Shown here: positions 5,561 to 53,445 of the stretch, piece after piece
Position numbering within the stretch: position 1 is the stretch's first letter
Layout: each line of letters begins with the position of its first letter
From: Candidatus Palauibacter sp.
Lineage (GTDB): Bacteria; Gemmatimonadota; Gemmatimonadetes; Palauibacterales; Palauibacteraceae
Length of the DNA: 64,000 nucleotides
Assembly: GCF_965213655.1 (NCBI RefSeq)
Contig: NZ_CBDBZT010000003.1
Location: forward strand, 1,927,733 to 1,991,732
Direction: 5' to 3'
Position numbers and translations under genes: made by a program
The notes under the pieces: generated by a model
Databases searched by the model: none
The model's input: only the letters and a program-made list of their open reading frames with translations
Told to the model about the DNA's origin: nothing

Positions 5561-5669
5561 CCTGGATATCCTCCGACGTGGTGATTCGCTGCCGGTAGAC
5601 GCCCGCTTCCAGTCTACACCTATTCGGCGCTCCTCCGCCGGTCAAACCGCAGCCCACGTAACGGCATCA

Positions 5670-8096
5670 TTACGGAACGAGGACGCGTTCGCGCTTTCTG
5701 AGCAGGAAGAGGCCCTCGTTCCAGCTCGAGATCGCGATCACGCCGCTCTCGAAGTACGGATAGTTGCTCCACGTGCCGCCGAAGGCCGTCGCGTCGTCGT
5801 CCGTGGGGACGGTGTCGAAGAAGGCCACCTCGACAGGGTTTTCAGGGTCCCGGATGTCGAGGATCCTCAAGCCGCCCAGAAGGTTCGACTGGTAGAGGAA
5901 GTCGCCCCGCACGTACTGGTTGTGGTCGATCGAGCGCGTCTCGGCGAAATACTCGGTCGCCAGCACCGGGTCGTCGAGTTCCACCACGTCCCACACGAGC
6001 GTCCGCGTATTGGAGACGGTACCCCCCTCCTCGTCGAGTTCGTCGCCGAGGAAAAAGTAGCGGTGGTCCTCGGTGAGCCATCCCTGGTGGGCGGCGACGG
6101 CGCCGGGGTAGCCGGCGCTCGCGAGCGCGACGGGATTCTCCTTGTCGGTGATGTCGGAGATCCCGAGCGCATCGATCGACGCGTGGAAGCAGATCTCCCG
6201 GCCGACGTAGTCCTCGTCGGGTCCGTCGTAGATCACGCACTGGGCGTCGTGCGTGTAGCCGCCGCCGAGGAAGCCGCCGATGTCGGGGTCCGCGAAGCAG
6301 CCGGCGAAGCGGGGGTTCGCCGGATCGCGGATGTCGATCATGTGCAGACCGCCGCCGCACGCCTCGCCGCCGCCGCTGCTGCCGACGGCGTGCGCGAAGC
6401 CGGTCTCCTCGTTGATCACGATGTTGTGCGAGCTGAACACGCCGTCGTACACGGCCGTCTCCTCGAACATCACGGGCGGATCGCGGACGTCCCTGAGTTG
6501 CGTGAGGTCGAAGATCTGGACGCCATGCGCGCCGGCGTTGTCCGCCACGATGAAGGCGTGGTCGGCGTAGGTCTTGATGTCGCGCCACAGGTTCTCGACG
6601 CCGCCCTCGGTGAGCGGGAGTTCGCCCACGTAGACCGGCGCGTTGGGGTCCGTGATGTCGACGAAGGAGGTGCCGTTGGACTTGCCGAGGAGGACGTACT
6701 CGCGGCCGGTCTGCGGATCGGTCCAGCCCCAGATGTCGTTCGCGATCGACGTGGGGCCGGCGCCGAGTTCGGCGAGCGGGAGGAAGGCGACGAGATCCAC
6801 GTCGGTGCACGCGTAGTCGAGGGCGGTCCCGTCGTCACAACTCACCGTCTCGCCGGTGACGGCGGTCATGTTCGGCCGTTCCGGATCGCGGAGCGTGGAC
6901 GACAACTCCCATGGGCCGCCGGGGCCGGAGCGTTCGAGGACCGCGGCCGCTCCGAGCCTGAGGTCGGCCTGACCGGCGCCGACCACCGCCATGTCCGGCC
7001 CGACTCCGAGGCTGGATCCGAAGGCGGCACCGGGACCGAACGGCGCCGCATCGACGGACTGGAGGTGGTCGAGCGAAACCCCGTCAAGGACGTACGCCGC
7101 CCCGGTCCCTCCGGCCGTGCCGGGCGCCCCGACCCACAGCAGCCCGCCGGCGACGGCCAGCGAGGTGCCGAAGCCGGCAGCGCCGGACACGTTGGGCGGG
7201 CTCACGAGTCGCGAGGATCCCGAGGGCTCGCTCACGTCGAAGGCTGCGACGACGCCCCCGCCCGCCTGGCCGGGCGCGCCCGCGAAAAGCGTGTTGCCCT
7301 CCAAGGCGAGGGACGCGCCGAAGCGGGCCCCGGCGTCCAGGCCCTCGAGCACGAACGAGCCGGCCGGCCGCCAGGCGTCCCCATCGCGCTCGAAGCGGTA
7401 CACCGCGCCACGGCCACGATCGCTGCCGGGCGCGCCCACGATGAGCAGGTCGGCGTCGGCGACGAGGGCGGCCCCGAAGCGATCAGCCCCTTCGGGCGAT
7501 GGGCTCCCGAGACGGCCCTGCGGGGTGACTTCGCCGTCCGGCTCGACGGCGTAGACGTAGACGACGCCTGGCTGCGCGGGCGCCGGCTGGCCGAAGCGCG
7601 GCAGGTCGCCGAGCCCGCCCGGCGCTCCGAGGAAGGCGGCGTCGGCCATCATCGCGACCGCGCTCCCCGCGCCGGCGCGCGCCTCGGCGGCCGGATCCAG
7701 CGCGGCGCGCTCGACCCAGGTCCCTTCCCGCCGCTCGAACAGGTAGGCGCGACCGCGCCTCTCCTCCGCCCCGGGGGCGCCGACGAGGAGCCGCTCACCG
7801 GCCCAGGCGACAGCCGTGCCGAACTGGTCGCCCACCGCACCCGCCCCGGGCCTTAGCGTCTCGGCCACGGCCCACGCGTCATCGCCGCCCTGCCGGTGCA
7901 CGTACACCGCACCCGCCTCCGGGTAGGTGGGAAGCCGGATCTCCGCGCCGTTGCGGGCGACGAGCACGTCGTCCCCCATGAGCGCGATGGAGGCCGCGAA
8001 CCCCGAGCCCACGGTCACCGGGAGAGTCTGGGCCGCGACGAGCCCGGGGGTGGCCAGCAGGCCTGAGATCAGGAACGGGAGCAATCCGGCACGCAT
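5670..8096 (-). CDS. secreted FG-GAP repeat / LVIVD-repeat beta-propeller protein
   Basis: I choose the internal ATG at 8096 (MRAGLLPFLISGLLATPGLVAAQ signal peptide, SD GGAGGTG upstream) over the track start at 8189. The N-terminal half has repeated ...LVGAPG.../...FAGAPG... FG-GAP-like blades. The C-terminal half has LVIVD-type motifs (HMIDIRDPANP, LRILDIRDPENP). Confidence 0.75.
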   Translation of the reverse strand: MRAGLLPFLISGLLATPGLVAAQTLPVTVGSGFAASIALMGDDVLVARNGAEIRLPTYPEAGAVYVHRQGGDDAWAVAETLRPGAGAVGDQFGTAVAWAGERLLVGAPGAEERRGRAYLFERREGTWVERAALDPAAEARAGAGSAVAMMADAAFLGAPGGLGDLPRFGQPAPAQPGVVYVYAVEPDGEVTPQGRLGSPSPEGADRFGAALVADADLLIVGAPGSDRGRGAVYRFERDGDAWRPAGSFVLEGLDAGARFGASLALEGNTLFAGAPGQAGGGVVAAFDVSEPSGSSRLVSPPNVSGAAGFGTSLAVAGGLLWVGAPGTAGGTGAAYVLDGVSLDHLQSVDAAPFGPGAAFGSSLGVGPDMAVVGAGQADLRLGAAAVLERSGPGGPWELSSTLRDPERPNMTAVTGETVSCDDGTALDYACTDVDLVAFLPLAELGAGPTSIANDIWGWTDPQTGREYVLLGKSNGTSFVDITDPNAPVYVGELPLTEGGVENLWRDIKTYADHAFIVADNAGAHGVQIFDLTQLRDVRDPPVMFEETAVYDGVFSSHNIVINEETGFAHAVGSSGGGEACGGGLHMIDIRDPANPRFAGCFADPDIGGFLGGGYTHDAQCVIYDGPDEDYVGREICFHASIDALGISDITDKENPVALASAGYPGAVAAHQGWLTEDHRYFFLGDELDEEGGTVSNTRTLVWDVVELDDPVLATEYFAETRSIDHNQYVRGDFLYQSNLLGGLRILDIRDPENPVEVAFFDTVPTDDDATAFGGTWSNYPYFESGVIAISSWNEGLFLLRKRERVLVP

Positions 8097-14178: not shown

Positions 14179-16560
14179 TTACGGGACCAGCGGCTGGAGA
14201 CGCCCGAATTCGTACTCTGCGGGCGGCTCGGCGCCGAGGAGGTGGCGGACGAAGTAGTCCCAGCGGCGGCGCATCATGTAGGGCTCGTTGCCGAAGCCGT
14301 GGCCGCGGTTCGGGAAGAGCAGCAGGTCGAAGTCCTTGTTCGCGGCGATGAGGGCGTCCACGACGAGCATCGTGTTCGAGTGCGGGACGTTCGTGTCCAT
14401 CGTACCGTGCGCAATGAGGAGCTTGCCCTTGAGGTTCTCGGCCACGAGCTGGTTCGCCTGGTTGTCGTAGTTCGTGGCGCCGTCGGCGTACGTCTCGAGC
14501 AGCCCCTGGTACTTCTCTCCCCAGTCGTCCTCGTAGTTGCGGTTGTCGTGGTTCCCCGCCTGGGAGACGGCGACCTTGTAGAAGTCGGGGTAGCGCAGGA
14601 TCCCGGAGGTGGAGGCGAAGCCGCCGCCGGAATGGCCGTAGATCCCGACCCGGCCGATGTCGATCCAGGGGTGGCGCTCGGCGAGTTGACGGATGCCGGC
14701 GATCTGATCCGGGAGCCCGTTGTCGCCCATGTTCCCGTAGTAGGCGTCCTGGAACGTCTTCGAGCGCCTCGGTGTGCCCATCGCGTCGAGTTCGATGACC
14801 ACGAACCCGAGTTCGGCCAGCGACTGCAGATCTCGGTGCGCGGCGCGGAAGCTCCGGCTTCCCACGCTCCCGCTCTGCGGCCCCGGATACAGGTAGTTGA
14901 TCACGGGATACTGCGCGGCCTGGTCGAAGTTCGAGGGACGGAACATCAATCCGTACAGATCGGTTTCGCCGTCGCGGGCCTTCACCGTGAAGGGGGTGGG
15001 CGGCCGCCAGCCGGTCCGCTCGAGGCGTGAGATGTCTGCCCGTTGGACGGTCTGGAGAAGCTCGCCGTCCATGTCCCGGACGACCGTCACGGGCGGGCTC
15101 GTGGGCGTCGAGTACTGGTCGACGAACGTCTCCCCGTCGGGCGCCAGCCACGCCACGTGGTTCGCGCTGTCCGGCGTGAGCAGCGCGGCGTCGCCTCCCT
15201 CCAGCCGGGCGCGGTAGACATACGCGAAGTACGGATCGCCCGGCTCACGCCCGTTCCCGATGAAGAGGATGTCCCCCGCATCCTCGTCGACGCGGAGGAC
15301 GCGTTCCACATTCCAGGCGCCCGACGTCACCTGCCGCTTCAGTTCCCCGGTGTTCGCGTCGTAGAGATAGAGGTGCCCCCAGTCGTCGCGCTGCGAGTAC
15401 CAGAGGATCTCGTCGGAAGCGGAGAGGTAGCGCCAGTTTGCGTGCGACTCGAAGAACGTCTCCACGACCTCCTCGAACAGGTCGCGCACCTCGCCCGTGG
15501 CCGCGTCGGCGATGCGAACCAGGGCCCGCTTGTGGTCGCGTGAACTCGAGACGAAGACGAGACGCGAACCGTCGGCGCTCCACTCCACGTCGGAGAAGCT
15601 CCCGCGGCACGCCACGTGGTCGCACACCGTGGAGCGGTGCTGGTCGGGGGGCATGTCGAGGCGGACGAGGCGACTCCCCTCCGGGGCCTCCGTGTCGATC
15701 ACCACGCGGTGGATCCGGAAGATGACCGAGTCCTCCGGGAGCGGGTAGCGCCATGCCTCGAGTTCGGGGTGCCCGACCTCCGTCGTGACCATGTACATCA
15801 TCCCCACCCCGCGCCCGTCGTGCTGGAAGGTGGCGATGCGGCGCGAGTCCGGAGACCACTTGAGCACGGGACGGTCGCTCTTCACCCACCCCGCGTTGTT
15901 CGTCGCGTAGCCGAAGTCCTCGACCCCGTCCTCGGTGAGCTGCGTCGTCTCCCCGGTCGTCAGGTCGCGGAGCCACAGGTTGTGGTCGCGGATGAAGGCC
16001 GCCTTCGTCCCATCGGGCGACACGATGTCGAAGCGGCCGGCCGGCCTGGCCTCGGGCGACGGGACCGCCTCGCAGCGGTCGGGGTCGAGCCCACAGGCGT
16101 AGGTCTCTCCTTCGACCTCGACCTCGAAGCGGACCGACCCGGCCTCCAGGGCGAGATCTCCGAACGGGAGCGCGAAGGCGGTGTACTCCGCGCCGCTCGC
16201 CGCGGTGAGAACGGCGGCCATGCGCGCGTGGTCGAAGGCGCGCTCCCGCGTCCCCGCGGCCGGATCGACAATGACGTACTCGTTGCCACCCTCGAACCGG
16301 TTCCGATACCAGAACCGTCCGTTGTCCAGCCACACGGGGAGGACGGAAGCCCCGAGCACGAGCGGGTTCGTGTGGTTCCCGAGCCGCCCTTCCGCCCGCT
16401 CGTAGTCCGCCTCCGTCAGCGCGGCGGGCGCGTCCTGACCAGCCGCTGGCGATCCGCGAACAGAGAGCGCCGCCCCCAAGCCGCATACCACCACGGCGAG
16501 GCGATGGAACGCGAGACGTGTGGCTGCGGACGCGCAACGTGCATTCGGGACGAGAGCCAT
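14179..16560 (-). CDS. S9-family serine peptidase, dipeptidyl-peptidase IV-like
   Basis: DPP-IV-type N-terminal propeller plus a C-terminal alpha/beta-hydrolase with GYSGGGF (GxSxG) and a conserved HG...D tail. The start is ATG 16560 (signal peptide) or the track start 16608. The overlapping ORFs 14117-15151 and 15245-17275 are R-rich artefacts. Confidence 0.85.
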   Translation of the reverse strand: MALVPNARCASAATRLAFHRLAVVVCGLGAALSVRGSPAAGQDAPAALTEADYERAEGRLGNHTNPLVLGASVLPVWLDNGRFWYRNRFEGGNEYVIVDPAAGTRERAFDHARMAAVLTAASGAEYTAFALPFGDLALEAGSVRFEVEVEGETYACGLDPDRCEAVPSPEARPAGRFDIVSPDGTKAAFIRDHNLWLRDLTTGETTQLTEDGVEDFGYATNNAGWVKSDRPVLKWSPDSRRIATFQHDGRGVGMMYMVTTEVGHPELEAWRYPLPEDSVIFRIHRVVIDTEAPEGSRLVRLDMPPDQHRSTVCDHVACRGSFSDVEWSADGSRLVFVSSSRDHKRALVRIADAATGEVRDLFEEVVETFFESHANWRYLSASDEILWYSQRDDWGHLYLYDANTGELKRQVTSGAWNVERVLRVDEDAGDILFIGNGREPGDPYFAYVYRARLEGGDAALLTPDSANHVAWLAPDGETFVDQYSTPTSPPVTVVRDMDGELLQTVQRADISRLERTGWRPPTPFTVKARDGETDLYGLMFRPSNFDQAAQYPVINYLYPGPQSGSVGSRSFRAAHRDLQSLAELGFVVIELDAMGTPRRSKTFQDAYYGNMGDNGLPDQIAGIRQLAERHPWIDIGRVGIYGHSGGGFASTSGILRYPDFYKVAVSQAGNHDNRNYEDDWGEKYQGLLETYADGATNYDNQANQLVAENLKGKLLIAHGTMDTNVPHSNTMLVVDALIAANKDFDLLLFPNRGHGFGNEPYMMRRRWDYFVRHLLGAEPPAEYEFGRLQPLVP

Positions 16561-16750
16561 GGCGATCGACCTTCTTCCGATTGATACCTGGATGAACCGG
16601 ACCGCCAAGATGCTTGTTGTCGCAGGGCCCGGCCACGGTCGTTCGCGGGCGGTGGCAACCGCCTGCTTGTGGACACCACAGGATGAGGATTATGGTATGT
16701 ATGACACTAGATACCACATACGACAGAATCACCATTTCAGGAATCGTGCC

Positions 16751-26867: not shown

Positions 26868-28052
26868 TCAGTTCGCGACCAGTCCGTAGAGGGCGACGGT
26901 CGGAACGCCCAGTTCGTCGCGCTGGCGCAGGAGGACCCAGTCCCGCCCCGCGTCGAGGACGACGCCGCTCGGCAGCGTGAGGCGGCGAAGCCATACGCCG
27001 TTCGCGTCCAGAAGATGCAGCTCCTCGCCCGCAGCCAGCCAGGCGTGGGTCTTGACCCAGAAGGCGCCGTCCGGCAGTGGGATAAGAGCCTCGTACGCCG
27101 GGAAGCGCTCCGGAAGCTGATCCCGGATGTCGGGCCAGACGTCCCGCTCGAAGTTCCGCCGGGCTTCGTCCTCGTCGTACCGCGCCAGCCACCCTTCCCG
27201 ATAGCTGTCGACGCGGTCGCCCGTCACCGTGAGGTCGGGACCGCCCCAGCGGGCCACCCGCGTCACCCGACCCGTCCAGTCCAGGTGCTCGAGTTCGTAG
27301 TCATCGGCCGTCCCGTACCACACGCCGGTGCCGGCAGGCGCGAACTCCATGTCACGCCCCCACCAGCGCGGACCGCTGGCCCCGGCCTGGATGAAGAACC
27401 GTTCGGCGCCCGGGATCCCCGAGCGGAGGGTGACGACGCTATCCCTCTCGAAGGATTCGAGGACCGTTTGCCACCGGTAGAGGTCCCCCTCGGCCAGGTC
27501 TTCCTCGTAGCTCGCACCCATGTCGTCGGGCCACGGCGTGTAGACCAGGCGGCCGTCAGGCGCACAGAAGGGGTCGTTGTAAGGGCGGACGCCGGCTGCA
27601 AGGAGCGAGCGCGTCGCGAGTACGTTGCCATCGAGATCCAGCTCGGTGATGCGGTCGAGACTCCAGTCGAAGACGGTGAGCGGTGCCCCGGGGCAGTTCC
27701 TGAGCAGCCGCAGCCCCTTGTACTCCCCCGGCCCCTCGCCCGATCGCCCGCTGGTCCACAGGTGACGACCGTTCGCGTCGTAACGGCGGAGGTTGCCGCT
27801 CTGCTCGTCCGCGACGACGACGCTTCCGTCCTCGAGACGAACCCCACCCGTCACGTTGCCGAAGATGTATTCGAGCGGACCGTCGACGATCCCGATCCGC
27901 ACCAGCGGCTCGTCGGCCAGCGTCAGGTCGGCGTCACGCGGGGCTGCGCTCTCAACGACCTCCTGGCCGGCGAGCGCCTGCGGCGCCATGAGAATCGAAA
28001 CGGTGAGCAGTAGTACGGCGCCGCCTGGCAGGCCGAACCTGGGTCGGTGCAT
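26868..28052 (-). CDS. secreted NHL-repeat 6-bladed beta-propeller protein, paralog 2
   Basis: 394 aa with signal peptide MHRPRFGLPGGAVLLLTVSILMAPQALAGQ and SGEGPGEY NHL motifs. Close paralog of the 17490-18647 product. Confidence 0.8.
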   Translation of the reverse strand: MHRPRFGLPGGAVLLLTVSILMAPQALAGQEVVESAAPRDADLTLADEPLVRIGIVDGPLEYIFGNVTGGVRLEDGSVVVADEQSGNLRRYDANGRHLWTSGRSGEGPGEYKGLRLLRNCPGAPLTVFDWSLDRITELDLDGNVLATRSLLAAGVRPYNDPFCAPDGRLVYTPWPDDMGASYEEDLAEGDLYRWQTVLESFERDSVVTLRSGIPGAERFFIQAGASGPRWWGRDMEFAPAGTGVWYGTADDYELEHLDWTGRVTRVARWGGPDLTVTGDRVDSYREGWLARYDEDEARRNFERDVWPDIRDQLPERFPAYEALIPLPDGAFWVKTHAWLAAGEELHLLDANGVWLRRLTLPSGVVLDAGRDWVLLRQRDELGVPTVALYGLVAN

Positions 28053-28232
28053 TTGCGCCCCGCGGGGGAGGTGTGGACAGGGAACATCGATCTCGGACTG
28101 GGGACACAGGTTCGACGCGAGAGAGTTGCGTCGCGTTTACGTCATCTGCCACGAGGCTCGATCCATCGTTCACGCAATACGAAAGTCGTATGATTGGGAC
28201 AGACTACACGTTACCCATGGTACCGAGGTTCA

Positions 28233-30471
28233 GATGCGTTCCCTTTCCGTCGCCCTCGTTCTTCCCGCCGCAGTGCTCGCGCTGCCCCCGCAGATGCCGC
28301 TCGCCGCGCAGGAGCGGCCATTCACGTTCATGGATGTGCAGGAGATGAAACGCGCCGGCTCATGGACGCCGAGTCCGGACGGCGCGTGGATGCTCTACAC
28401 CGTGACGACCCCCGACTGGGAGGCGGCCGAGTCCCAGACGGACATCCACCTCGTGTCGCTGAGCGAGGGCGTCCCGTCGGATCGCCGGCTCACCTACACC
28501 GAGGACAAGGACGAACGCAGCCCGACCTGGGGTCCGGACGGGTCGTTTTTCCTCTTCGCCTCCAACCGGGATGGGGACGACACCCAGCTCTACATGATGC
28601 GCCACGACGGGGGCGAGGCCCGGAAGATCACCGACGCGGAGGAAGGCGTGTCCGGCTTCGCGTTCAGCCCCGACGGGCGCTGGCTCGTGTATCGCTCCGG
28701 GGAATCCAACCGGGAGCAACTCTACCGGCTGCCGGCCGACGACCTCGCGGACGCCGAGCCCGAACAGATCACCGACGGCGAGGCGGGCGTGGACCAGTGG
28801 GACTTCTCCCCTGACGGAAGCCGCGTCTACTTCGCGCGCCCCGATTCGTTCGACGAGGACGAGGTGAAGCGGCGCGAGGAGGGCTTCACGGTCGACGTCC
28901 GGAACGCGGTCACCCCGCTCTCGAGCCTGTGGAGCGTCGAGGTCGAGTCGGCCGCCGAGGAGCGCGAGACCGACGACCCCTCCTACAGCGTGAACAGCTT
29001 CACGATCTCCGACGACGGACGCTGGATCGGGATCACGGGCGGCTCGACGAAGCGCTACGAGCGCAACATCACTGCGCAGCGGCTCTATGCGGACCTCCAC
29101 CTCATGGAAGTGGCGACGGGCGAGATCGAGCGCTTGACCGACAACTACGAGGTCGGCGAGGGCGGACTCAGCTTCTCCCCGGATGGCCGCTGGATCGCTT
29201 TCTCCGCGCCGGACGAGATGGAGCGCTACTCGATGACGGAGAACCGCATCTACATCCGCGAGCTCGGGGACCGCGGGGGGGCGTTCCGGAAGCTGGGCGC
29301 GGAGTTCGACCAGAGTTCGAGCGTCGGGTTCTGGTCGGAGGATGCGAACACGATCTACTTCAACGCCGGCGTGAAGGTAACGACGCAGTTGCACGCCCTC
29401 GACGTGGAGACCGGCGCGGTGCGGCAGCTCACCGACGAGCTCGCGGCGCTCTCGGTGTCCCGGAATGACGACACGGGCACGCTTCTCATCAACTACAGCG
29501 ACCCGAAGACGCCGCCCACCGTATTCGCCGTCGCGAGCGTGGACGATGTCCCGGACCGCTCGAAGTGGACACAACTCGTCGACGTGAACCCCCAACTGCG
29601 CGAGGTGGCGTTCGGCGAGGAGGCGGAGGTCAACTGGCGTTCGTCCGATGGGAAGATGGTCGGAGGCGTTCTCGTCTATCCCGTGGACTACGAGGAGGGG
29701 ACGCGCTATCCGCTCATCGTCGCGATCCACGGGGGGCCGGCGTCGGCCGACATCCTGCGCTTCAACGGCGGGTACAGCGCGCAGGTGTACGCGGGGGCGG
29801 GCTACGCCGTGCTCAAGCCCAACTACCGCGGCTCGCGGAACTACGGGAACGCGCACCGCACGGACATCGTCGGCGACTACTTCACGATGGGCTACGAGGA
29901 CATCATCACGGGCGTGGACCACCTGATCGCCGAGGGCATCGTGGACGGCGACCGCATGGGCGCGCTCGGCTGGAGTGCGGGCGGCCACTGGTCCAACTGG
30001 ATCCTCACGCAGACGGACCGCTTCAAGGCGATCAGTTCGGGCGCCGGGACGATGAACTGGATCAGCATGTACGCGCAGAGTGATGTGCAGCGTAACCGGC
30101 AGTTCTACGTGGGCGACGGCTTCCTGTACGAGGACTTCGACACGTACTTCGACCAGTCCCCGCTCAAGTACATCGCGAACGCGAAGACGCCGACGATGAT
30201 CCACGTGGTGGAGGGCGACCCGCGCGTGCCGAGCCCGCAGTCGGTTGAACTCCACATGGCGCTCAAGAAGCTGGGCGTCCCGACGGAACTGTTCATGTAT
30301 CCCGGCCGGAGCCACGGCATCCCCGACCCGCGCAACCGGCTTGTGAAGGCGGTGAGCGAGATGGCCTGGATGGATTACTACGTGCGCGGCATGGGAGAGA
30401 AGTTCCAGTGGCGACAGGTGCTCGAAACGCTTGAGGCCGAGGAGGCCCCGACGGTCGTCTCGGAGCGTTAG
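28233..30471 (+). CDS. secreted S9-family serine peptidase (prolyl oligopeptidase / acylaminoacyl-peptidase-like, TolB-type propeller N-domain)
   Basis: Start ATG 28233 (MRSLSVALVLPAAVLALPPQMPLAAQE signal). The track start 27793 is an antisense artefact. Repeated FSPDG propeller blades. C-terminal hydrolase domain with GWSAGG (GxSxG) and the ...D...H tail. Confidence 0.85.

Positions 30472-43111: not shown

Positions 43112-43115
<4 letters not shown>
41991..43115 (-). CDS. ABC transporter periplasmic substrate-binding lipoprotein (family-1 SBP), copy 1
   Basis: GTG start at 43115 (VKKRRPIHCTRALVLVVGAAVPAFIQACG lipobox) with a purine-rich GGAAGGGGAAG SD. The track's 43253 start adds an R-rich artefact. 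Confidence 0.8.
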
Positions 43116-44245
<1,130 letters not shown>

Positions 44246-44370
44246 CTGGCGATTTCGTCTCGTTTTCCGGAATATGGGATGGTGCTGCACCCCGGTTCGG
44301 GGTGGACCAACTTGAAGCCGCCGACATCAATCCGCGAGGGCGCGCGGCCGTGGTGAGCAGAGGAGGAAAG

Positions 44371-45414
44371 ATGAAGATCAGGAATCGGACGGCGGGACGG
44401 GTCACGTGGGCGGCCTGCCTGCTCGTCCCCGTCGCGGCGTTGGCGCTGGCGGTCGGAGGAGAACCGACCGAGAAGATGGACTCGGCCTCCGCCGCGCAGG
44501 CCTTCGTCTCCCTGCTCGACGAGGCGGGACGGGGGAAGGCGCTCTTCTCTCTCGAGGACGAGGAGCGCTTCAACTGGCACTTTGTCCCGAGGTCGCGGAA
44601 CGGACTGCCGCTAGCCGACATGACGACCGAGCAGCGAGGCGCCGCGCACGATCTCCTTCAGGCCGCAATGAGCAGCCAGGGCTTTCTGAAGGCGAGCGCG
44701 ATCATCGAACTGGAGCGAATCCTCGGACTCCTCGAGGGGCGGCCCGAGCGCCGCGACCCCGAGAACTACTACGTCGCAATCTTCGGCGATCCGTCGGCGG
44801 AGGGTCCGTGGGCATGGCGGTTCGAAGGGCACCACCTCTCCCTCAACTTCTCGTCGCCTTCGGGCTTGCTCACGGTGACGGGGCCCGCGTTCATGGGCGC
44901 GAATCCGGCGCGCGTGCCATCGGGTCCGAAGGCCGGCTGGCGGCCACTGGGGCGGGAGGAAGACCTCGCCCGCGCGCTGATGCGGAGCTTCACGCCCGAC
45001 CAGCGGGAGCGTGCGACCATCGCGGCCGAGGCGCCCAGCGACATCCTCACCGGCAACGACCGCGAGGCGCGGCTCGACGCGTTCGAGGGCCTCCCTGCCG
45101 ACGCCATGACCGCCGAGCAGCGCGCGATCCTGTTCGAGATCGTGCACGAATACGTGGGGAACACGACGACGGACTTCGACTGGATGGTGCGGGTCGAGAA
45201 CGAGATTCCGGCGAGCGACATCCACTTCGCCTGGGCGGGGTCGCTGGAACCCGGCGAGGGACACTACTACCGCGTCCACGCCCCCGTCTTCCTGATCGAG
45301 TACGACAACACACAGAACGACGCCAACCACGTCCACTCGGTGTGGCGAGACCTGGAGAACGACTTCGGGGGCGACGCGCTCGCGCGCCACTACGAGGAGT
45401 CCGACCACCACTAG
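44371..45414 (+). CDS. secreted DUF3500-like protein
   Basis: ATG 44371 directly after AGGAGGAAAG; signal peptide MKIRNRTAGRVTWAACLLVPVAALALAVGG. The WRFEGHHLSLN motif is as I recall it for DUF3500. This call is from memory only. Confidence 0.55.
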   Translation: MKIRNRTAGRVTWAACLLVPVAALALAVGGEPTEKMDSASAAQAFVSLLDEAGRGKALFSLEDEERFNWHFVPRSRNGLPLADMTTEQRGAAHDLLQAAMSSQGFLKASAIIELERILGLLEGRPERRDPENYYVAIFGDPSAEGPWAWRFEGHHLSLNFSSPSGLLTVTGPAFMGANPARVPSGPKAGWRPLGREEDLARALMRSFTPDQRERATIAAEAPSDILTGNDREARLDAFEGLPADAMTAEQRAILFEIVHEYVGNTTTDFDWMVRVENEIPASDIHFAWAGSLEPGEGHYYRVHAPVFLIEYDNTQNDANHVHSVWRDLENDFGGDALARHYEESDHH

Positions 45415-45463
45415 CTAGCGGGCCGCGGCGGAGACCTCCTCCGCGGCTACGCCGGGTTCAGCC

Positions 45464-47926
45464 CTAGCGGCCGATGATGCTCAGGAAGCGGGGGTCGTCG
45501 CGTATGCTCTCGAAGTCGTCATCGTTCGGGAGCGTGCGCCGGCGTCCGGGATTCAGCTCGACCGCCCTCTCCAGAGCGTCGAAAGCGAGGTCCTCGCGGC
45601 CGGCTTCGACGAGGATCGCGGCCATCGACACCCACACGTTGTCGTTCTCGGGTGACAAGGCGGAGGCTCGCCGCGCAATCCCCGCGGCCCCGCGCAGGTC
45701 GCCGTCCCGCCGCAGCCGGGCGGCTTCGCGCAGCATCTGGCCCGAGCGGTACATGTTGAGGACGCGGCGCAGTTCGGCGAGCGGTTCGTCGTGGTCGTCC
45801 ACGCGGATGTCGACGACGCGATCGCTGTAGCCGCCGTTGACCCGCGGCGCCACGACCAGGATGGCGCCGGACTGCATCCCGCGCGCGTCGCCGCCGGCCG
45901 CCTGGGCAGCGTCGAGCGCGTCCATGAGCCGCTCCGCCAGCGGGCCGGTGGACGATTCGAACGAGGCCGCCATCGCGTCGACGACTTCGGGCCCGGTGAG
46001 GATGTTCCCCTGCGCGCAGTAGTCCACGCCACACTTGTGACCCTTCCAGTCGCTCGCGCCGGTGCCGGTCCAGGCCGCAGTCCGTCCCTGCTGGTCGAGG
46101 ATCGAAACCTGGCGGCGATCCCGGCCCTCGTCGCTCCCCACCATCATCTCGAGCGCTTCCTCGGGTGAGTAGCCGGCCTGGAGGAGTTGGATGCCGATCG
46201 CCCCGTACATGGGGTTCGCGGCGGCCTGGTGCGCGATGATCACGAGTCCGCCCTTCGCGTGCATGGCGCGATTCCCTGCCCCGAACGCCTTCGACTGCAC
46301 GCCCATCCCCAGTTCGCCGGTCGCGGGATCGCGCCCGATGATCGAGAAGGTCCCCAGGTAGTTCGGGTCGAGGAGGTTCTCGCTGTTCCCGGTGGCCGGA
46401 ACCATGCGCGGCTCGGGGACCGCCTCGGCCGAAGCCCAGGCGCCGCCCAGCGCCCGATGGACCGCCAGCCTCGCCAGGGCCAGATCCCGCGTCGCACCCG
46501 CCAGCGCCGCCTCCACGTTCAGGAGCGTGCGCAGCGCGTCGAGGTAGTCGGTGTAACCCACGACCCCCGACTCGTATCGCTGCGACTGCAGGTCCCTGGT
46601 AGCCCGCGCTTCCTCGCGCTGGGAGGCGAGGAAGGCGTGCCGCCGGGTCTCGTTCTCCAAGCCGGCGAGCGCCGTTTCCACTTCGTTCACCGCCGTGACC
46701 ACCGCCCGCCCGTATGTCGCCGCGGCCTCACCAAAGCGGCCTTCGGCAAGCGCGAGATTGTTCCGGAGCCGGCCGCCCTGGAAGATGGGCGCAATCAAGT
46801 TCGTGATCAGATTCGTGAACCACTGTTGCGCGTTGAAGAGTTCGCCGGCGTCGGCGCTGGCCAGCCCGATGGAACCGGACAGCGAGAGCGACGGAAGCAA
46901 TTGGGCGCGGCGTGCGCCGATACTGTAGCGCGCCGCATCGAGGCGCTGCCCGGCAGCCCTCACGTCGGGCCGCTGGAAGAGGAGATCCGCCGGAACCCCG
47001 GCGGGGACGGGATCCGCCGCGAGCTCCGGCGTGAGAGCTTCGGGCAGGAGCGCCTCCACATCCTCCCGATAGCCGCCCATCAGAACGGCCAGTCGAGCTT
47101 CGGCGTTCGTGAGCTGCGTCTCAAGTTGTGGCAGCCCCGCCTGCGTGTTCCTGAGGTCCTGGCGAACCAGGGACAGCGTCCAGGAGTCGATGAGGCCCCG
47201 GTCGTAGCGCGTCGAAGCCAGCGACTCGCGTTCGAGCAGCACGTCCACCGTCTCGGTCGCCAACTCGGTCTGCCGCCGCAGGCTGACGATGTCGAAATAC
47301 GTGGTGATGGTCTCGGCCAGGATGCCGATGCGCGCCGCATGGAAATCCGACTCCGAGGCCAGGTATTCCGAGCCCGCGGCCCGGGCGTCGTTGCGGGCGC
47401 GTCCCCAGAAATCCAGCTCGTAGGCGAAATCCGCGCTGACCGAATACGTCGTCAGCTCGATTCTCTCGGGAAGCGCGAAACCCGCGATCGTATCTCCCGG
47501 ACTGCCCAGCCCGAGGGCCTGGATCTGGGCGCCGATGCCGGCGTCCGTCGGCGTGTCGATGTCGTTGACGGCGGCGCTCGCCCCCACGCTGGGGAAGAGG
47601 TCGGCCCGCGCCATGCGCGCCCTGGCGCGAGCCTGTTGAACGCGCGCGACGCCGGCGGCAAGGTCGAAATTGGAGGCGAGCACGGAATCGACGACGGTGT
47701 TGAGTACCGGGTCCCGGAACGTCGTCCACCACTCCAGCGGCTCGTACGTCCCCGGCTGCAGCCTGGCCGAGAAATCGTCCGGCATCTCCGCCACCGGCTC
47801 CGGAAGGGACGGCCCCGGAGCCAGGGAACAGGCGGAGAGCAGCAAGAGCGGGGCGGCCCGCCCCAGTCTCGCCAGTCTCGCCAGTCTCGCCAGTCTCGCC
47901 ACAAGCGGTACTCCCCTGCGCGTCAC
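45464..47926 (-). CDS. fusion: NodT/TolC-type outer-membrane-factor lipoprotein (N-terminal ~500 aa) + DUF1028 Ntn-hydrolase-like domain + short TPR-like tail
   Basis: GTG start at 47926; lipobox LLLLSACSLAPG. OMF coiled-coil/beta-barrel repeats end with the family-typical …LAVHRALGGAW at about aa 497. Then …NYLG|TFSIIGRDPATGELGMGVQSKAFGAGNRAMHAKGGLVIIAHQAAANPMYG…, the DUF1028 signature whose stand-alone members begin Met-Thr-Phe-Ser-Ile. No stop codon separates the two parts. Confidence 0.75.
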   Translation of the reverse strand: MTRRGVPLVARLARLARLARLGRAAPLLLLSACSLAPGPSLPEPVAEMPDDFSARLQPGTYEPLEWWTTFRDPVLNTVVDSVLASNFDLAAGVARVQQARARARMARADLFPSVGASAAVNDIDTPTDAGIGAQIQALGLGSPGDTIAGFALPERIELTTYSVSADFAYELDFWGRARNDARAAGSEYLASESDFHAARIGILAETITTYFDIVSLRRQTELATETVDVLLERESLASTRYDRGLIDSWTLSLVRQDLRNTQAGLPQLETQLTNAEARLAVLMGGYREDVEALLPEALTPELAADPVPAGVPADLLFQRPDVRAAGQRLDAARYSIGARRAQLLPSLSLSGSIGLASADAGELFNAQQWFTNLITNLIAPIFQGGRLRNNLALAEGRFGEAAATYGRAVVTAVNEVETALAGLENETRRHAFLASQREEARATRDLQSQRYESGVVGYTDYLDALRTLLNVEAALAGATRDLALARLAVHRALGGAWASAEAVPEPRMVPATGNSENLLDPNYLGTFSIIGRDPATGELGMGVQSKAFGAGNRAMHAKGGLVIIAHQAAANPMYGAIGIQLLQAGYSPEEALEMMVGSDEGRDRRQVSILDQQGRTAAWTGTGASDWKGHKCGVDYCAQGNILTGPEVVDAMAASFESSTGPLAERLMDALDAAQAAGGDARGMQSGAILVVAPRVNGGYSDRVVDIRVDDHDEPLAELRRVLNMYRSGQMLREAARLRRDGDLRGAAGIARRASALSPENDNVWVSMAAILVEAGREDLAFDALERAVELNPGRRRTLPNDDDFESIRDDPRFLSIIGR
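47864..47899 (-). repeat. perfect 9-bp tandem repeat x4 (cagtctcgc) encoding (ARL)4 in the n-region of the OMF signal peptide
   Basis: The repeat is seen directly in the sequence. It encodes …VARLARLARLARLGRA…. Confidence 0.7.
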
Positions 47927-47933
47927 CGCGTGC

Positions 47934-48644
47934 TCAGGGCGCGAGACTGAAGCCGAACACGAGGTGCGCGCGCTCCTGGTCGGGATTCAGGATGTAGGCG
48001 ACGCTCACCGGCACAGCGAAGGTCTCCGTGATCGCGAGGTCCTTGCTCGCCGTGATGCCCACGTTGACGAGAGCAGCCTCCTCGGTGCCGTAGAAGTCGC
48101 TCTCGCCGCCCACGAACCCCATGTGCAGCCCGACACCCACTCCCGAGACCTCGAAGGGCACGCCCACCTCCGCGTACAGCACGCTGCTCTCGGTGAGCAG
48201 GCCGCCGAAAAGGGAGATCGGAAAAGTCTCCGGACCCGTGAAGCCGAGCGACATCTCCACCGTGTGCGCCTCGCCGTCCCCGAATCCGGCGTCGGCGTCG
48301 GGCGAGGGGAAGTAGTAGTCGGTGATGCCGACCGCGACGGAGAGGCCGGATGAGGCCGTCACCGTGTAGGTCGCCCAGAGATCGTTCTCGTTCGCGGAGG
48401 CGCCCGACGCGGAGATGGAATACGAACCCCATGCGCCGAACTCGAGCCCTCCCGCCGCGAAGGTGAGCGCCGGTTGCACCGCCATGGATTCCCCGAAGTC
48501 GACGCCGCGCCAGACGTAGCGGCTGACGACGTCGGCCCCGATGGAGGCGGACTGGCCCCACACGGGGGCGGCGAAGACGAAGAGGGCCGCGACGGCGAGG
48601 CCAGGGCCCCGGAACCGATTCGAATCAGTGCGGATTACGGACAC
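47934..48644 (-). CDS. small outer-membrane beta-barrel protein (hypothetical)
   Basis: GTG start at 48644 with a GAGAGAGGAGAAG SD. It overlaps the transglutaminase 3' end by 10 nt. Signal peptide …GLAVAALFVFAAPVWGQ, alternating amphipathic beta-strands, C-terminal …LVFGFSLAP. It lies 7 nt upstream of the OMF fusion gene. Confidence 0.55.
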   Translation of the reverse strand: MSVIRTDSNRFRGPGLAVAALFVFAAPVWGQSASIGADVVSRYVWRGVDFGESMAVQPALTFAAGGLEFGAWGSYSISASGASANENDLWATYTVTASSGLSVAVGITDYYFPSPDADAGFGDGEAHTVEMSLGFTGPETFPISLFGGLLTESSVLYAEVGVPFEVSGVGVGLHMGFVGGESDFYGTEEAALVNVGITASKDLAITETFAVPVSVAYILNPDQERAHLVFGFSLAP

Positions 48645-49507
48645 GATTCTTCTCCTCTCTCGATGGTGACCCGGGTACGGAGCATGGACTCCGCCGAACC
48701 CCGGAAGACGCCGCGCGTGGGCGGAACGTCGGCATAATCGCGGCCCACCGCGACCCTTATGTGACGCACGTCACACTGTGTGTCGTTGGTCGGATCGAAG
48801 CCGATCCACCCCACCCCGGGGAGCCAGCTCTCGACCCACGCGTGGCTTTCGCCGGTCGTAACGTCACCTTCGCGCTCAAGATCGGGACCAAGGTAGCCGG
48901 ATACGTAACGGGTCGGGATCCCCCAGCCCCGGAGGATCGAAGCCATCACGTGGGCGTAGTCCTGGCACACACCCTCCCGGCTTTCAAGGATGCGCTCGAT
49001 CGGCGAATCGACGGCGGTCGTACCTGGAATATAGTCAAACAGCTCGTGCAGCCGACTCCGCAGGGCAACGGCGGTCGCAAGCGGATCGTCCCCGCGCTCG
49101 AGACCGCAGCTACTGATGAAGTCGGCGAGGACCGGCGAAGCACGGACGAAACGGCTCGGCTGCAGCATGAGGCCGAGGTCGGGAGTGCCCGCCTCGTCGC
49201 CGAGCCGGGCCCAGCCATCTTTTCCGACCTCGATGGGCGACTCCGGTATCGGCCCCACCTCGACGGTCGAACGCCCGACAATCGAGAGGCGGCGATGTGT
49301 CCCGGGCCGATCGAAGAAGTGCCCGCGGTTGTGGAAGGGTCCCTCGAACTCGAACACGGCCCCGGACGGATCAGTCTCGATCTCGAACCCGCGCACGACC
49401 TGAGTGCGGTCCTGCGCCGGGTGCAGAAAGAGCGTCATCACGGACGCCTGAACCGGCGCACTGTACACGAACTCGATCGCGTGCTCGATCGTGTAGCGCG
49501 CGATCAT
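48635..49507 (-). CDS. transglutaminase-family protein (Bact_transglu_N + transglutaminase core)
   Basis: Internal ATG 49507 (MIARYTIEHAIEFVYSAPV, the typical Bact_transglu_N start) overlaps the alpha-E stop (ATGA). Cys-His-Asp triad in GVCQDYAHV…, HAWVESW and FDPTND. The track extension to 49930 is an R/G-rich artefact. Confidence 0.85.
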   Translation of the reverse strand: MIARYTIEHAIEFVYSAPVQASVMTLFLHPAQDRTQVVRGFEIETDPSGAVFEFEGPFHNRGHFFDRPGTHRRLSIVGRSTVEVGPIPESPIEVGKDGWARLGDEAGTPDLGLMLQPSRFVRASPVLADFISSCGLERGDDPLATAVALRSRLHELFDYIPGTTAVDSPIERILESREGVCQDYAHVMASILRGWGIPTRYVSGYLGPDLEREGDVTTGESHAWVESWLPGVGWIGFDPTNDTQCDVRHIRVAVGRDYADVPPTRGVFRGSAESMLRTRVTIERGEESCP

Positions 49508-50487
49508 GCCGGGAGCCCCACGGCCACCGGGTAATCGACGTACCTGGCCTGGACAAGGTCGTGCAGGGCCCGGCTGTCGCGTGTCAGAGAGTCGAAGACC
49601 TCCCCGGGCGCAACAGGGGACGCGGCGTCGGCTTCGCCCATTTCGAGTTCGATGGTCGCCGCCATGCGAAGCACCATGCGATGGGGCGGCGCGAGCGGAG
49701 GGCGTCCGCCCGCGGGATCGATCCCCCCCAGCACGGACTCGATGCGATCGGTCGCGTAGCGCAGGGAACGGGCGACCTCCGGGTTTCGTATCAGAAAGCC
49801 GAGCACGGGGCCACGGTGCAGCGTGAGCGACCGGTCCCGGCGGTAGGGTTCGAAAGCACCGCACACGCGCAGGAGATCGGCCCAGGAGAGGACGAGGCCA
49901 TCGCCCTCCGGCCGGGCGATCCGGTCCCACACATCGAGCAGTACGATCTGCTGCTGCAGACGCTCGACGTACCGGCCCAGTTCAAGGAAGCGCCACGCAT
50001 CGTCCCGCGCCATGTTGGCGTCCACGACGCCCGCCAGCAGACGGAGGCGGTCGATGGCCTGGCTCACGAGAGCCACCGGTCCCTCACCCCACACGTCGGC
50101 GAACTCCGTCTCCTGAAGCCAGAGGTATCCCTGGTTCAGGCACACCCACACGCGCAGGGGCAGCCGGGGACGGATCTCCCTCGCGTTCTCCCTCGCCATC
50201 CCCCAGCACGAGATCATCGACGCCGGATTCGTCGTGTCCTCGACGAGACCGCCCGTCAACGTGTAGGCATCCGCGATGAGGAAAGCTTCGGCCTCGTCCA
50301 CATCGGCCGGCGCCTCGGGCGGGGACTGGCTCAGCGCCCGGTACACGACGTGCCATCCGAGGGCGATTTCGTCGGCGTCCGTATCCACGAGCCGTGCCAA
50401 CTGATACTCGAGCAGGCGGGCCGTGTTCTCGGTCCGCTCCGCGTAGCGGCCCAGCCAGTAGAAGTTCGCCGCCATCCGGGCTAGCAT
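49504..50487 (-). CDS. alpha-E domain protein (DUF403)
   Basis: MLARMAANFYWLGRYAERTENTARLL is the hallmark alpha-E N-terminus. Confidence 0.85.
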   Translation of the reverse strand: MLARMAANFYWLGRYAERTENTARLLEYQLARLVDTDADEIALGWHVVYRALSQSPPEAPADVDEAEAFLIADAYTLTGGLVEDTTNPASMISCWGMARENAREIRPRLPLRVWVCLNQGYLWLQETEFADVWGEGPVALVSQAIDRLRLLAGVVDANMARDDAWRFLELGRYVERLQQQIVLLDVWDRIARPEGDGLVLSWADLLRVCGAFEPYRRDRSLTLHRGPVLGFLIRNPEVARSLRYATDRIESVLGGIDPAGGRPPLAPPHRMVLRMAATIELEMGEADAASPVAPGEVFDSLTRDSRALHDLVQARYVDYPVAVGLPA

Positions 50488-50511
50488 CGTCCGTCGCCTC
50501 TCTCCCGGCCG

Positions 50512-52011
<1,500 letters not shown>

Positions 52012-52035
52012 TGAACGGTACTCGTCGAGGGACGC

Positions 52036-53445
52036 TCAGTCCGCGTCGCGGAAGTCGTTGTCGTCGTCCGGATCCACCATGAGGACGAATTCGGGATAGG
52101 CATCGAGCCCGAGTTCCGCCGCATCCTGGCCGATGCTCTCGACGCTTCGCGACACGCGTACACCCATCGCCCTGTCCAGTACCATCCAGAGGATCCATGA
52201 AGTGGAAAAGGCGAATGCGCCGACGGCCGCGACGCCGGCCAGCTGCACCCAGAAATCGCCGCCGGCCGCGATGCAGGTGGCCAGAGTGCCCCACACTCCG
52301 GCGAAGAGGTGCGCCGGCACCGCGCCGACCACGTCGTCGATCCGCCTGACCTCCAGCACCTTCAGTCCGATCATGCACAGGAAGGAGCCGACGGCGCCGA
52401 TCAGGATCGCCCACAGCGAGTTCGTGATGTTCGGTCCCGCCGTGATTGCCACCATGCCGGAGATTGCCCCGTTGAGCGTGGCGAAGAGGTCGACCCGGCC
52501 GAGCAAAGGCCTGGAGAGGCAGAGCGCCGTGATAACACCGGCCGCGGCAGCGAGGTTCGTGTTCACGAGGATGTTGCTCATCGCAACCGCGTTGGCGACG
52601 CCCGAGAGGGCGAGTTCGGAGCCGCCGTTGAAGCCGAACCATCCCATCCAGAGGATGAACACGCCCAGCGTGACGGCGGGGATGTTCGACGGAGGGGTCA
52701 GCTTGACGGAGCCATCCCTTTTGAACTTGCCCCAGCGCGGACCCACGACGAGCGCGCCGGCGAGCGCGGCCCAGCCGCCTGTCGAGTGCACGATCGTCGA
52801 GCCGGCGAAGTCCGTGAAGCCCAGCTGGGCGAGCCAGCCGCCGCCCCACGTCCACGCGCCGACGATGGGGTAGATGATCGCAGTGAGCCCGGCGACGAAG
52901 ACGAAGAAGGTCCACAGCTTGACGCGCTCGGCCAGCGCCCCGGAAACGATCGAGGCGGTCGTGGCGACGAAGACCATCTGGAAGAACCAGTCGGACATGA
53001 CGGCGTAGCCGTTCTCCGTCACGGCGGCGGCTGCCCCTTCGTTCCCGCCGAGGAGGGCCACTTCGTCGGCCGACGGACCGTAGAGGAAGCCGATCCTCCC
53101 GATCAGATCGCCGACATCCACGTACATGAGATTGTAGCCGATGACGTAGTAGGTGAGGCCGGCGATCGCGTAGAGTCCGATGTTCTTCATGCAGATCATC
53201 GAAGCGCTCTTCGACCGCACCGAACCGGCCTCGAGCATCGTGAACCCGGCACACATCCACATCACCAGCACGCCCCAGACGAGGAACGAGTACGTGTTGA
53301 GGACGAAGCCGAGATCTCCAATGCCGTCCTGCGCGGCAAGCGCCGCTGGTGCGAGTAGGAGACTCGCGCCGGAAAGCAGCGCGATGGAGGCGAGATTCCT
53401 TCCCGCCGTTAACCGGCGGAACCAGCGTATTCGATGGGTGCTCAC
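52036..53445 (-). CDS. amt: ammonium transporter (Amt family)
   Basis: GTG start at 53445 with an AGGAAGGAG SD; cleavable signal peptide. Eleven-TM Amt pattern (…SGALAERVKLWTFFVFVAGLTAIIYPIVGAWTWGGGWLAQLGFTDFAGSTIVHSTGGWAALAGALVVGPR…). It lies 25 nt upstream of the ATP-grasp gene, same strand. Confidence 0.9.
   Translation of the reverse strand: MSTHRIRWFRRLTAGRNLASIALLSGASLLLAPAALAAQDGIGDLGFVLNTYSFLVWGVLVMWMCAGFTMLEAGSVRSKSASMICMKNIGLYAIAGLTYYVIGYNLMYVDVGDLIGRIGFLYGPSADEVALLGGNEGAAAAVTENGYAVMSDWFFQMVFVATTASIVSGALAERVKLWTFFVFVAGLTAIIYPIVGAWTWGGGWLAQLGFTDFAGSTIVHSTGGWAALAGALVVGPRWGKFKRDGSVKLTPPSNIPAVTLGVFILWMGWFGFNGGSELALSGVANAVAMSNILVNTNLAAAAGVITALCLSRPLLGRVDLFATLNGAISGMVAITAGPNITNSLWAILIGAVGSFLCMIGLKVLEVRRIDDVVGAVPAHLFAGVWGTLATCIAAGGDFWVQLAGVAAVGAFAFSTSWILWMVLDRAMGVRVSRSVESIGQDAAELGLDAYPEFVLMVDPDDDNDFRDAD

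Follow-up and report, generated by a model that had tools for sequence, protein, structure and literature searches.

The window analyzed here is a stretch of 64,000 nucleotides from Candidatus Palauibacter sp. (Gemmatimonadota; assembly GCF_965213655.1, contig NZ_CBDBZT010000003.1, positions 1,927,733 to 1,991,732 of the forward strand), and all positions given below are counted from its first nucleotide unless another locus is named. On its reverse strand, at 45464..47926, the window contains an open reading frame (ORF) of 820 amino acids (aa) that joins two unrelated proteins in a single chain. The first is an outer-membrane factor (OMF) of the NodT/TolC type, and the second is a DUF1028 domain of the N-terminal nucleophile (Ntn) hydrolase class followed by a helical TPR domain. 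An exact-sequence look-up of the 820-aa protein returned no database record, and no second copy of either the OMF or the DUF1028 half is found in the 64-kb window.

Domain architecture, fold and nucleophile

The fused ORF, taken from the ORF listing of the window, starts with a GTG codon, for which the relatives have ATG at the equivalent place. The start codon, a signal peptide and a lipobox (LLLLSAC, Cys33) occupy 47828..47926, as read from the translation and from a TIGR01845 match that begins at aa 25. The LLSAC lipobox is present in all relatives compared, and this OMF lipoprotein signal is the sole export signal of the 820-aa precursor. The OMF domain (aa 25-497, 46436..47854) is complete. 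In the NCBIfam scan it matches TIGR01845, the lipoprotein NodT subfamily, over aa 25-495 and profile positions 2-459 of 460 with 286.3 bits against a cut-off of 210.05, and in the Pfam scan two stretches of it match OEP with an E-value (E) of 9e-45. Membership in the NodT-type OMFs is borne out by both the full-length model match and the lipobox cysteine. The domain ends with RALGGAW at W497, where a preliminary description of this locus, made from the sequence and its translated ORFs, had placed its end. The in-frame fusion to DUF1028 reported there is confirmed by the Pfam and NCBIfam domains within a single ORF, and the Gly-Thr junction stands as well, whereas the spacing of about 25 residues given for it is corrected to 28.

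The residues between W497 and Thr526 (ASAEAVPEPRMVPATGNSENLLDPNYLG) consist of two parts, and the junction is crossed with neither a stop nor a frame change. The linker (aa 498-517, 46376..46435) comprises the C-terminal tail that the OMF naturally has (ASAEAVPEPRMVPATGNSE) and a deletion scar at about 46379/46378, identified by aligning the window with L001 and L003, two relatives that keep the genes separate; its length differs among fused alleles. It is followed by a conserved segment, LLDPNYLG (aa 518-525, 46352..46375), delimited by motif conservation, which precedes the threonine with Gly525 at position -1 and is a putative propeptide. Thr526 (46349..46351) occupies position 1 of the Pfam DUF1028 profile and is the candidate N-terminal nucleophile as well as the P1' residue of a putative Gly525/Thr526 cleavage site. 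In the uncleaved precursor, the tryptic peptide spanning the junction is MVPATGNSENLLDPNYLGTFSIIGR. The DUF1028 domain (PF06267; aa 526-719, 45770..46351), assigned by Pfam and by its fold, matches profile positions 1-193 of 193 with E 4.8e-65, which establishes its membership, and starts at the conserved Thr. The C-terminal helical TPR domain (aa 720-820, 45467..45769) contains a match to NF047558, the TPR end-of-group domain, at aa 765-818 (E 8e-13, NCBIfam scan), and the stop codon of the ORF lies at 45464-45466. An internal start of translation at Met508 (PEPRMVP) was considered and rejected, because unfused OMFs conserve the same Met, the segment deleted here is the one in which the two-gene relatives have their ribosome-binding site, and the product would be without a signal peptide. 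A scan of 45200-49000 for promoters and terminators gave nothing above shuffle expectation, and no internal promoter was found before the DUF1028 part.

The fold of aa 496-820 was modeled with AlphaFold2 (AF2) from 65 aligned sequences. The mean predicted local distance difference test score (pLDDT) is 87.5, with values of 54-60 for the linker and the segment before Thr526. In the model, the first β-strand (aa 527-533) comes directly after Thr526, blocks of strands and helices alternate, and the TPR part forms seven helices with pLDDT above 95 that are matched in Foldseek by designed TPR proteins. Against the PDB, the best Foldseek match is 2IMH, the one solved structure of a DUF1028 protein, with E 2e-14, a target-normalised template-modeling (TM) score of 0.77-0.80 and a root-mean-square deviation of 2.2-2.3 Å over about 200 columns. 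2IMH is also the only match in a PDB sequence search (phmmer E 9e-22, 32% identity), in which no member of MEROPS family T1 appeared. After 2IMH and the TPR matches, Foldseek lists proteasome beta subunits, BPH and HslV at a weak E of about 1e-3, and an hhalign comparison of the 65-sequence DUF1028 profile with E. coli HslV gave a probability of 0.6% and no meaningful alignment. On the evidence of the model, the C-terminal domain has the Ntn-hydrolase fold (an α-β-β-α sandwich in which a central strand starts with the nucleophile) that the preliminary description had expected, with a predicted architecture like that of the Thr1 peptidases and a place outside family T1.

An exhaustive HMMER search of 1.84 billion representatives (50% clustering) returned 6,450 DUF1028 matches at E <= 1e-3. 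A census of the nucleophile was made on the best 150 of these, 143 of which have an alignment that starts at query position 1 or 2. At the site of Thr526, 142 of the 143 carry Thr and one carries Ser, and the Thr is invariant in the homolog alignment as well; together with its position directly before the first strand, this upholds the earlier presumption that Thr526 is the nucleophile. Position -1 holds Ala in 44, Ser in 28 and Gly in 27 of the representatives (99 with A, S or G) and the initiator Met in 23, so that the invariant Thr/Ser nucleophile with a small residue before it, a mark of the Ntn hydrolases, is present. In about one sixth of the representatives, the cytoplasmic ones, the aligned Thr is residue 2 and follows the initiator Met. 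A few (P0270, P0361, P0374) have it directly behind an AxA signal-peptidase site, and in the remainder it is preceded either by a signal peptide with a short peptide after it or by a long N-terminal region. The statement that stand-alone DUF1028 proteins begin with M-TFSI holds for that sixth but not for the close relatives. These close homologs, found in Gemmatimonadota and some Vicinamibacterales, comprise about 118 proteins of 325-350 aa with a Sec signal peptide, then [ED][YFW]DP[DN]xx[GAS], then T[FY]SII. Judged from sequence, the positions of the Thr fit the pattern expected for an N-terminal nucleophile exposed by methionine aminopeptidase, signal peptidase or autoprocessing.

Recurrence and origin of the fusion

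The same OEP+DUF1028(+TPR) architecture was recovered, in a search of 5.8 billion proteins, in 13 protein clusters of 803-813 aa and 88-95% identity. Most of them belong to Candidatus Palauibacter, a sponge- and coral-associated member of the Gemmatimonadota, and several lie on Mb-scale contigs. When one genome per GTDB species was scanned, the fusion was found in 12 Candidatus Palauibacter species representatives (L008-L012, L015-L017, L020-L023); the carriers include P. irciniicola, P. ramosifaciens, P. denitrificans and P. rhopaloidicola as well as complete chromosomes, and the assemblies are independent and derive from both short and long reads. The orthologs in which the preliminary description had advised looking for the fusion do carry it. 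In NCBI, the fused proteins carry the name 'efflux transporter outer membrane subunit'. For 13 fused alleles, the median pairwise ratio of nonsynonymous to synonymous substitution (dN/dS) is lowest in the DUF1028 domain (0.043), followed by the OMF (0.126), the TPR domain (0.27) and the linker (0.30). Purifying selection acts on both halves of the protein and is strongest on the enzyme.

The origin of the fusion is visible in very close relatives that carry two genes. The metagenomic contig L001, from the same species, is 96.7% identical to the window at the nucleotide level on both sides of the junction and has 92 bp more, with BLAST breakpoints at 46380 and 46377 of the window. This insert contains a Shine-Dalgarno-like GAGGGAGGA, an ATGA overlap between the OMF stop and the DUF1028 start, and a Sec signal peptide. 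At this place L001 encodes MKRRSVLVAVGWLIAGPAAASA/QSTAADILDPNYLG-TFSI, a typical Sec signal peptide, and L003 and L007 have the same two-gene arrangement. The window allele is a 92-bp deletion from this two-gene state. The deletion, whose length is 2 mod 3, placed the enzyme in the OMF frame. The ribosome-binding site and the whole Sec signal peptide were lost in it together with the OMF stop and the DUF1028 start, but LLDPNYLG was spared. That the fusion is real and derived by deletion is close to certain.

Fused and two-gene alleles coexist among genomes that are about 97% identical in nucleotide sequence, and in the tree the unfused alleles are nested in the fused clade. Such coexistence would be expected if both alleles yield the same mature products. 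The 27 nt beside the scar in the window are 96% identical to the fused L017 and 85% identical to L001, a similarity that suggests exchange of alleles by recombination and involves very few sites. The fused junctions are of several types, SE-NLLDPNYLG, SEEADLLDPNYLG and SGAANLLDPNYLG, which could reflect either one event followed by linker indels or several deletions. In two of the contigs compared, L003 and L004, the ATP-grasp, DUF3500, OMF and adaptor genes are split, probably by long-read frameshift errors (coverage of L004 is 2x), and the analysis relied on gene calls from these contigs only at places with an unambiguous DNA alignment.

The DUF1028 enzyme has been joined to other exported proteins as well. 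In a sister lineage (L002, 7527-9689, and L013, representing GCA_965219195.1 and another Candidatus Palauibacter metagenome-assembled genome), an HlyD-type periplasmic adaptor, or membrane fusion protein (MFP), is fused to DUF1028-TPR in a 720-aa protein encoded downstream of an OMF gene. The nearly identical L004 has the adaptor and the enzyme as two ATGA-overlapping genes. Compared with L004, 89 bp are missing from the fused form, a length that is likewise 2 mod 3, and these comprise the stop/start overlap and the signal peptide MRDTRRDIVVALGILIAIPAVALC. The MFP-DUF1028 fusion is a deletion of the same kind as the OMF fusion and independent of it. In two other Gemmatimonadota (L025, about 4960-6909, and L029, about 5040-6909), a secreted short-chain dehydrogenase (SDR, adh_short) is fused in frame to DUF1028 with the joints ...DPDYLA/T and ...DPNYLG/T; no SDR homolog was found among the other loci compared, and no two-gene precursor of this fusion was identified there. 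The three partners checked all have export features of their own, namely the lipoprotein nature of the OMF, a membrane anchor at the N-terminus of the adaptor, and a signal peptide in the SDR. GNAT and SnoaL-like domains are further N-terminal partners; like the SDR, they are joined immediately ahead of the segment that precedes the Thr.

Tandem proteins of the forms [DUF1028-TPR]x2 and [DUF1028-PG_binding]x2 exist across the family (P0241, P0242, P0252; loci L039, L050, L052, L074 and L072, 6952-8985). The same short motif stands before each copy, for instance as TDPWFG/TFSI and ADPWFG/TFSI, and the second nucleophile is internal to the chain. A later loss of the OMF is seen in the Tara scaffold L086 (211-1257) and in Candidatus Palauibacter poriticola (L019, about 5800-6903), where the body of the OMF has been deleted in frame with different boundaries; the deletion in L019 is flanked by two PEP motifs. 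These loci still encode the lipoprotein signal and the tail of the OMF, followed by DPNYLG/T and DUF1028-TPR, so that the enzyme is kept and depends on the upstream signal. The segment before the Thr is retained in the OMF, MFP and SDR fusions, in the tandem copies and in the OMF-deleted forms. In Palauibacter, five states of one locus are found, and DPNYLG/T[FY]SII is kept in all of them.

A proposed self-processing precursor and its alternatives

The reading that we favor, with a probability of roughly 0.65, is that the 820-aa ORF encodes a Sec-exported precursor that autoprocesses at Gly525/Thr526 and releases a periplasmic Ntn amidohydrolase. The precursor would be exported across the inner membrane by means of the OMF lipoprotein signal. 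Since the C-terminus of the OMF is periplasmic in structures of the TolC/OprM type, the DUF1028 domain is proposed to fold in the periplasm. The side chain of Thr526 would then attack the Gly525-Thr526 bond in the N-to-O acyl shift known from Ntn hydrolases such as the proteasome beta subunits. Two products would result, an OMF with a 28-residue tail and a soluble 295-residue DUF1028-TPR enzyme whose free N-terminal Thr would be the catalytic nucleophile. Because such an enzyme would excise itself, any exported upstream protein could substitute for its signal peptide, and the recurrent fusions would be explained, the identity of the partner being irrelevant as long as it is exported. The self-cleaving precursor suggested in the preliminary description has in this way gained orthologs, a fold and a conserved DPNYLG/T boundary, while the cleavage itself keeps the standing of a prediction.

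Several points weigh against the proposed autoprocessing. Cleavage at Gly525/Thr526 is deduced from comparative data. The DUF1028 family is without a characterized member in the literature; a literature search found one irrelevant paper that mentions DUF1028, and the terms COG3342, PF06267 and IPR010430 were not found. Kinship to proteasome-type enzymes appears in the model by fold only, with E about 1e-3 and TM 0.3-0.6, and the putative propeptide before Thr526 is modeled at low confidence and is not seen to dock into the active site. A folded domain of 33 kDa on an OMF precursor might, if cleaved slowly, interfere with its handling by Lol and BAM. The two fusion partners within the genus, OMF and MFP, are both parts of tripartite export machines, which makes a functional link with export possible.

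This last point leads to an alternative that we regard as unlikely, in which the enzyme is a periplasmic appendage of an efflux duct, either because the fusion stays intact or because the cleaved enzyme docks through its TPR domain. Hydrolase-TPR bound to the OMF or the adaptor would give a TolC-like duct with a built-in periplasmic amidohydrolase that processes cargo or remodels peptidoglycan, and the repeated fusion to two different components of one export machine would count as a Rosetta-stone indication that these proteins form a physical complex. Consistent with this, the two fusions are independent and the enzyme gene in Palauibacter always follows the OMF gene or the OMF and MFP genes with a 4-bp overlap. 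TPR domains generally mediate protein-protein contacts, and some DUF1028 proteins carry peptidoglycan-binding domains. However, an uncleaved Thr526 would lack a free alpha-amino group, yet constraint within the protein is strongest on the DUF1028 domain (dN/dS 0.043). The partners found elsewhere (SDR, GNAT, SnoaL-like domains and tandem copies) have no relation to efflux, two lineages have lost the OMF body and kept the enzyme, and fused and unfused alleles occur within one species-level group. Outside the genus, the neighbors are usually TonB-dependent receptors and peptidases, OEP being found in 2 of 88 flanking ORFs. Finally, no pump partner was found among 29 filter-picked ORFs in the 64-kb window.

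A cut at the junction by a separate periplasmic protease, instead of an autocatalytic one, is quite unlikely. The linker is disordered and hence accessible, and self-processing of DUF1028 is without precedent in the literature, both of which would suit such a protease. It would need to cut exactly before the Thr in many unrelated contexts and across phyla, though, and each copy in the tandem proteins repeats its own motif before the Thr. The conserved Thr with a small residue at -1 is, moreover, the signature of intramolecular Ntn processing, as known from proteasome beta subunits, glycosylasparaginase, gamma-glutamyltranspeptidase and the acylases.

The idea that the fusion is an error of assembly or sequencing, or else a pseudogene in decay after the loss of a stop codon, which the very close two-gene relatives (L001, L003, L007) and the frameshifted genes in some relatives' assemblies (L003, L004) might bring to mind, is effectively refuted because the fusion recurs in 12 species representatives with independent assemblies and both halves are under strong purifying selection, and the fused and two-gene forms differ by a clean 92-bp indel, not a homopolymer slip. 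The lost stop or sequencing error that had been offered as the alternative to a true precursor is correct insofar as the stop was lost in evolution through the 92-bp deletion, and not as an error, the allele being fixed and selected. Likewise, the two separate genes that had been set against a fusion do exist in some very close relatives, but the difference from them is this indel and no frameshift error.

Comparison with known systems and genomic context

The closest structural relative, 2IMH (SPO2555 of Silicibacter pomeroyi; DUF1028, PF06267/COG3342), resembles the window domain in its full-length match to the hidden Markov model and in the same TFSI start. It is, in contrast, a cytoplasmic stand-alone protein beginning M-TFSI, whereas the window domain is predicted to be periplasmic and lies behind an OMF and a propeptide-like segment, with a TPR domain after it. 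Proteasome-type precursors have N-terminal propeptides that are removed by intramolecular autolysis at Gly-Thr. The window domain shares with proteasome beta subunits, HslV and BPH (MEROPS T1) a Thr at the start of a β-strand and a Gly at -1, and these are its best folds outside DUF1028. It differs from them in that sequence or profile similarity is not detectable and DUF1028 proteins are not known to form rings; in addition, the 'propeptide' of the window protein would be an independently functional membrane protein of 525 residues.

In periplasmic Ntn precursors such as penicillin G acylase, periplasmic autoprocessing exposes an N-terminal Ser or Thr. The window protein would resemble penicillin G acylase, cephalosporin acylase, PvdQ and gamma-glutamyltranspeptidase in being a Sec-exported single-chain precursor. 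In these enzymes the upstream fragment is a bound subunit of the same enzyme, while in the window it is an unrelated channel, and elsewhere an adaptor, a dehydrogenase or another copy of the enzyme; furthermore, the window enzyme has had its own signal peptide deleted. With NodT/OprM OMFs (TIGR01845) the window protein shares the lipobox and the two OEP repeats, and it differs from them by a C-terminal extension of 323 residues. Self-cleaving autotransporters such as the SPATEs also combine an outer-membrane protein and an enzyme in one polypeptide and separate them by autoproteolysis, as is proposed here. There is no homology, however, and in the SPATEs the passenger is extracellular, the domain order and topology are opposite, and cleavage occurs by Asn cyclisation inside the barrel. 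Autoprocessing Ntn precursors are thus already known, and what is new here is that a complete and unrelated outer-membrane channel lies upstream and that the export signal of the enzyme has been discarded.

The locus can be read as a natural experiment, which predicts that DUF1028 proteins are self-processing Thr-Ntn hydrolases with the segment before the Thr as propeptide. If this is true, it describes a route of gene evolution in which a self-excising enzyme drops its signal peptide and borrows that of an exported protein upstream, and it would mean that bacteria have polyproteins made of unrelated parts, one gene giving rise to two unrelated proteins. The junction would be a candidate for a minimal self-cleaving cassette for periplasmic co-expression. 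For annotation, the locus is a warning that a second enzyme may be concealed in proteins annotated as 'efflux transporter outer membrane subunit'.

The function of the DUF1028 enzyme was approached through its neighbors at about 58 loci outside Palauibacter (L024-L085). The commonest flanking genes encode TonB-dependent-receptor-like outer-membrane proteins with a CarboxypepD_reg domain (21 of 88 ORFs, and 5 of 10 scanned separately). Others encode SusC/SusD-like proteins, peptidases of families M19, S9 and S15, an amidase, beta-lactamase-fold and TMEM164-family proteins, and further copies of DUF1028. OEP occurs in 2 of the 88 ORFs, and the OMF, DUF3500 and Gcw_chp neighbors of the Palauibacter locus are absent from these loci. 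This census gives a first idea of the role of DUF1028 in the periplasmic processing of imported peptide-like or amide nutrients. Our best guess from this context is that the enzyme works in the periplasm as an amidohydrolase on peptide-like or amide compounds that have been imported and has no role in efflux, and that its adjacency to an OMF is an accident of gene order, specific to this genus, that enabled the fusion.

In the window, the fused ORF lies between ammonium transporters with a circularly permuted ATP-grasp/Alpha-E/transglutaminase set and a PotA-type ABC importer. A Gcw_chp family gene for a putative outer-membrane protein (47934..48644, reverse strand; PF09694), syntenic in all Palauibacter loci, ends 7 nt before the OMF start and probably belongs to the same operon. 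Downstream, a convergent DUF3500 gene (44302..45414, forward strand; PF12006, E 7e-89) is a conserved neighbor in Palauibacter. The conserved order in the genus, which corresponds to 43112-53445 of the window, is ammonium transporter, circularly permuted ATP-grasp, Alpha-E, transglutaminase, Gcw_chp, OMF(-DUF1028), convergent DUF3500 and PotA-type ABC importer. The 29 ORFs of the 64-kb window selected by a codon-composition filter include no gene of the HlyD/MFP, RND or ABC-exporter kind; in the sister lineage, an MFP gene adjoins the OMF. Orphan OMF genes are common, and the absence of a pump nearby does not exclude membership in the OMFs. Two large genes of the S9 family (DPP IV/prolyl oligopeptidase) are present in the window, at 14179-16608 on the reverse strand and 27793-30471 on the forward strand, and S9 peptidases are recurrent DUF1028 neighbors in other phyla.

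A last feature concerns the signal peptide of the OMF. Repeat analysis identified in its n-region a perfect 9-bp tandem repeat of 4.3 copies (47863..47901, reverse strand) that encodes (ARL)x4. The unit on the coding strand is GGCGAGACT, and the relatives have a single ARL at this place. The repeat may be a slippage-prone site that changes the charge of the signal peptide.

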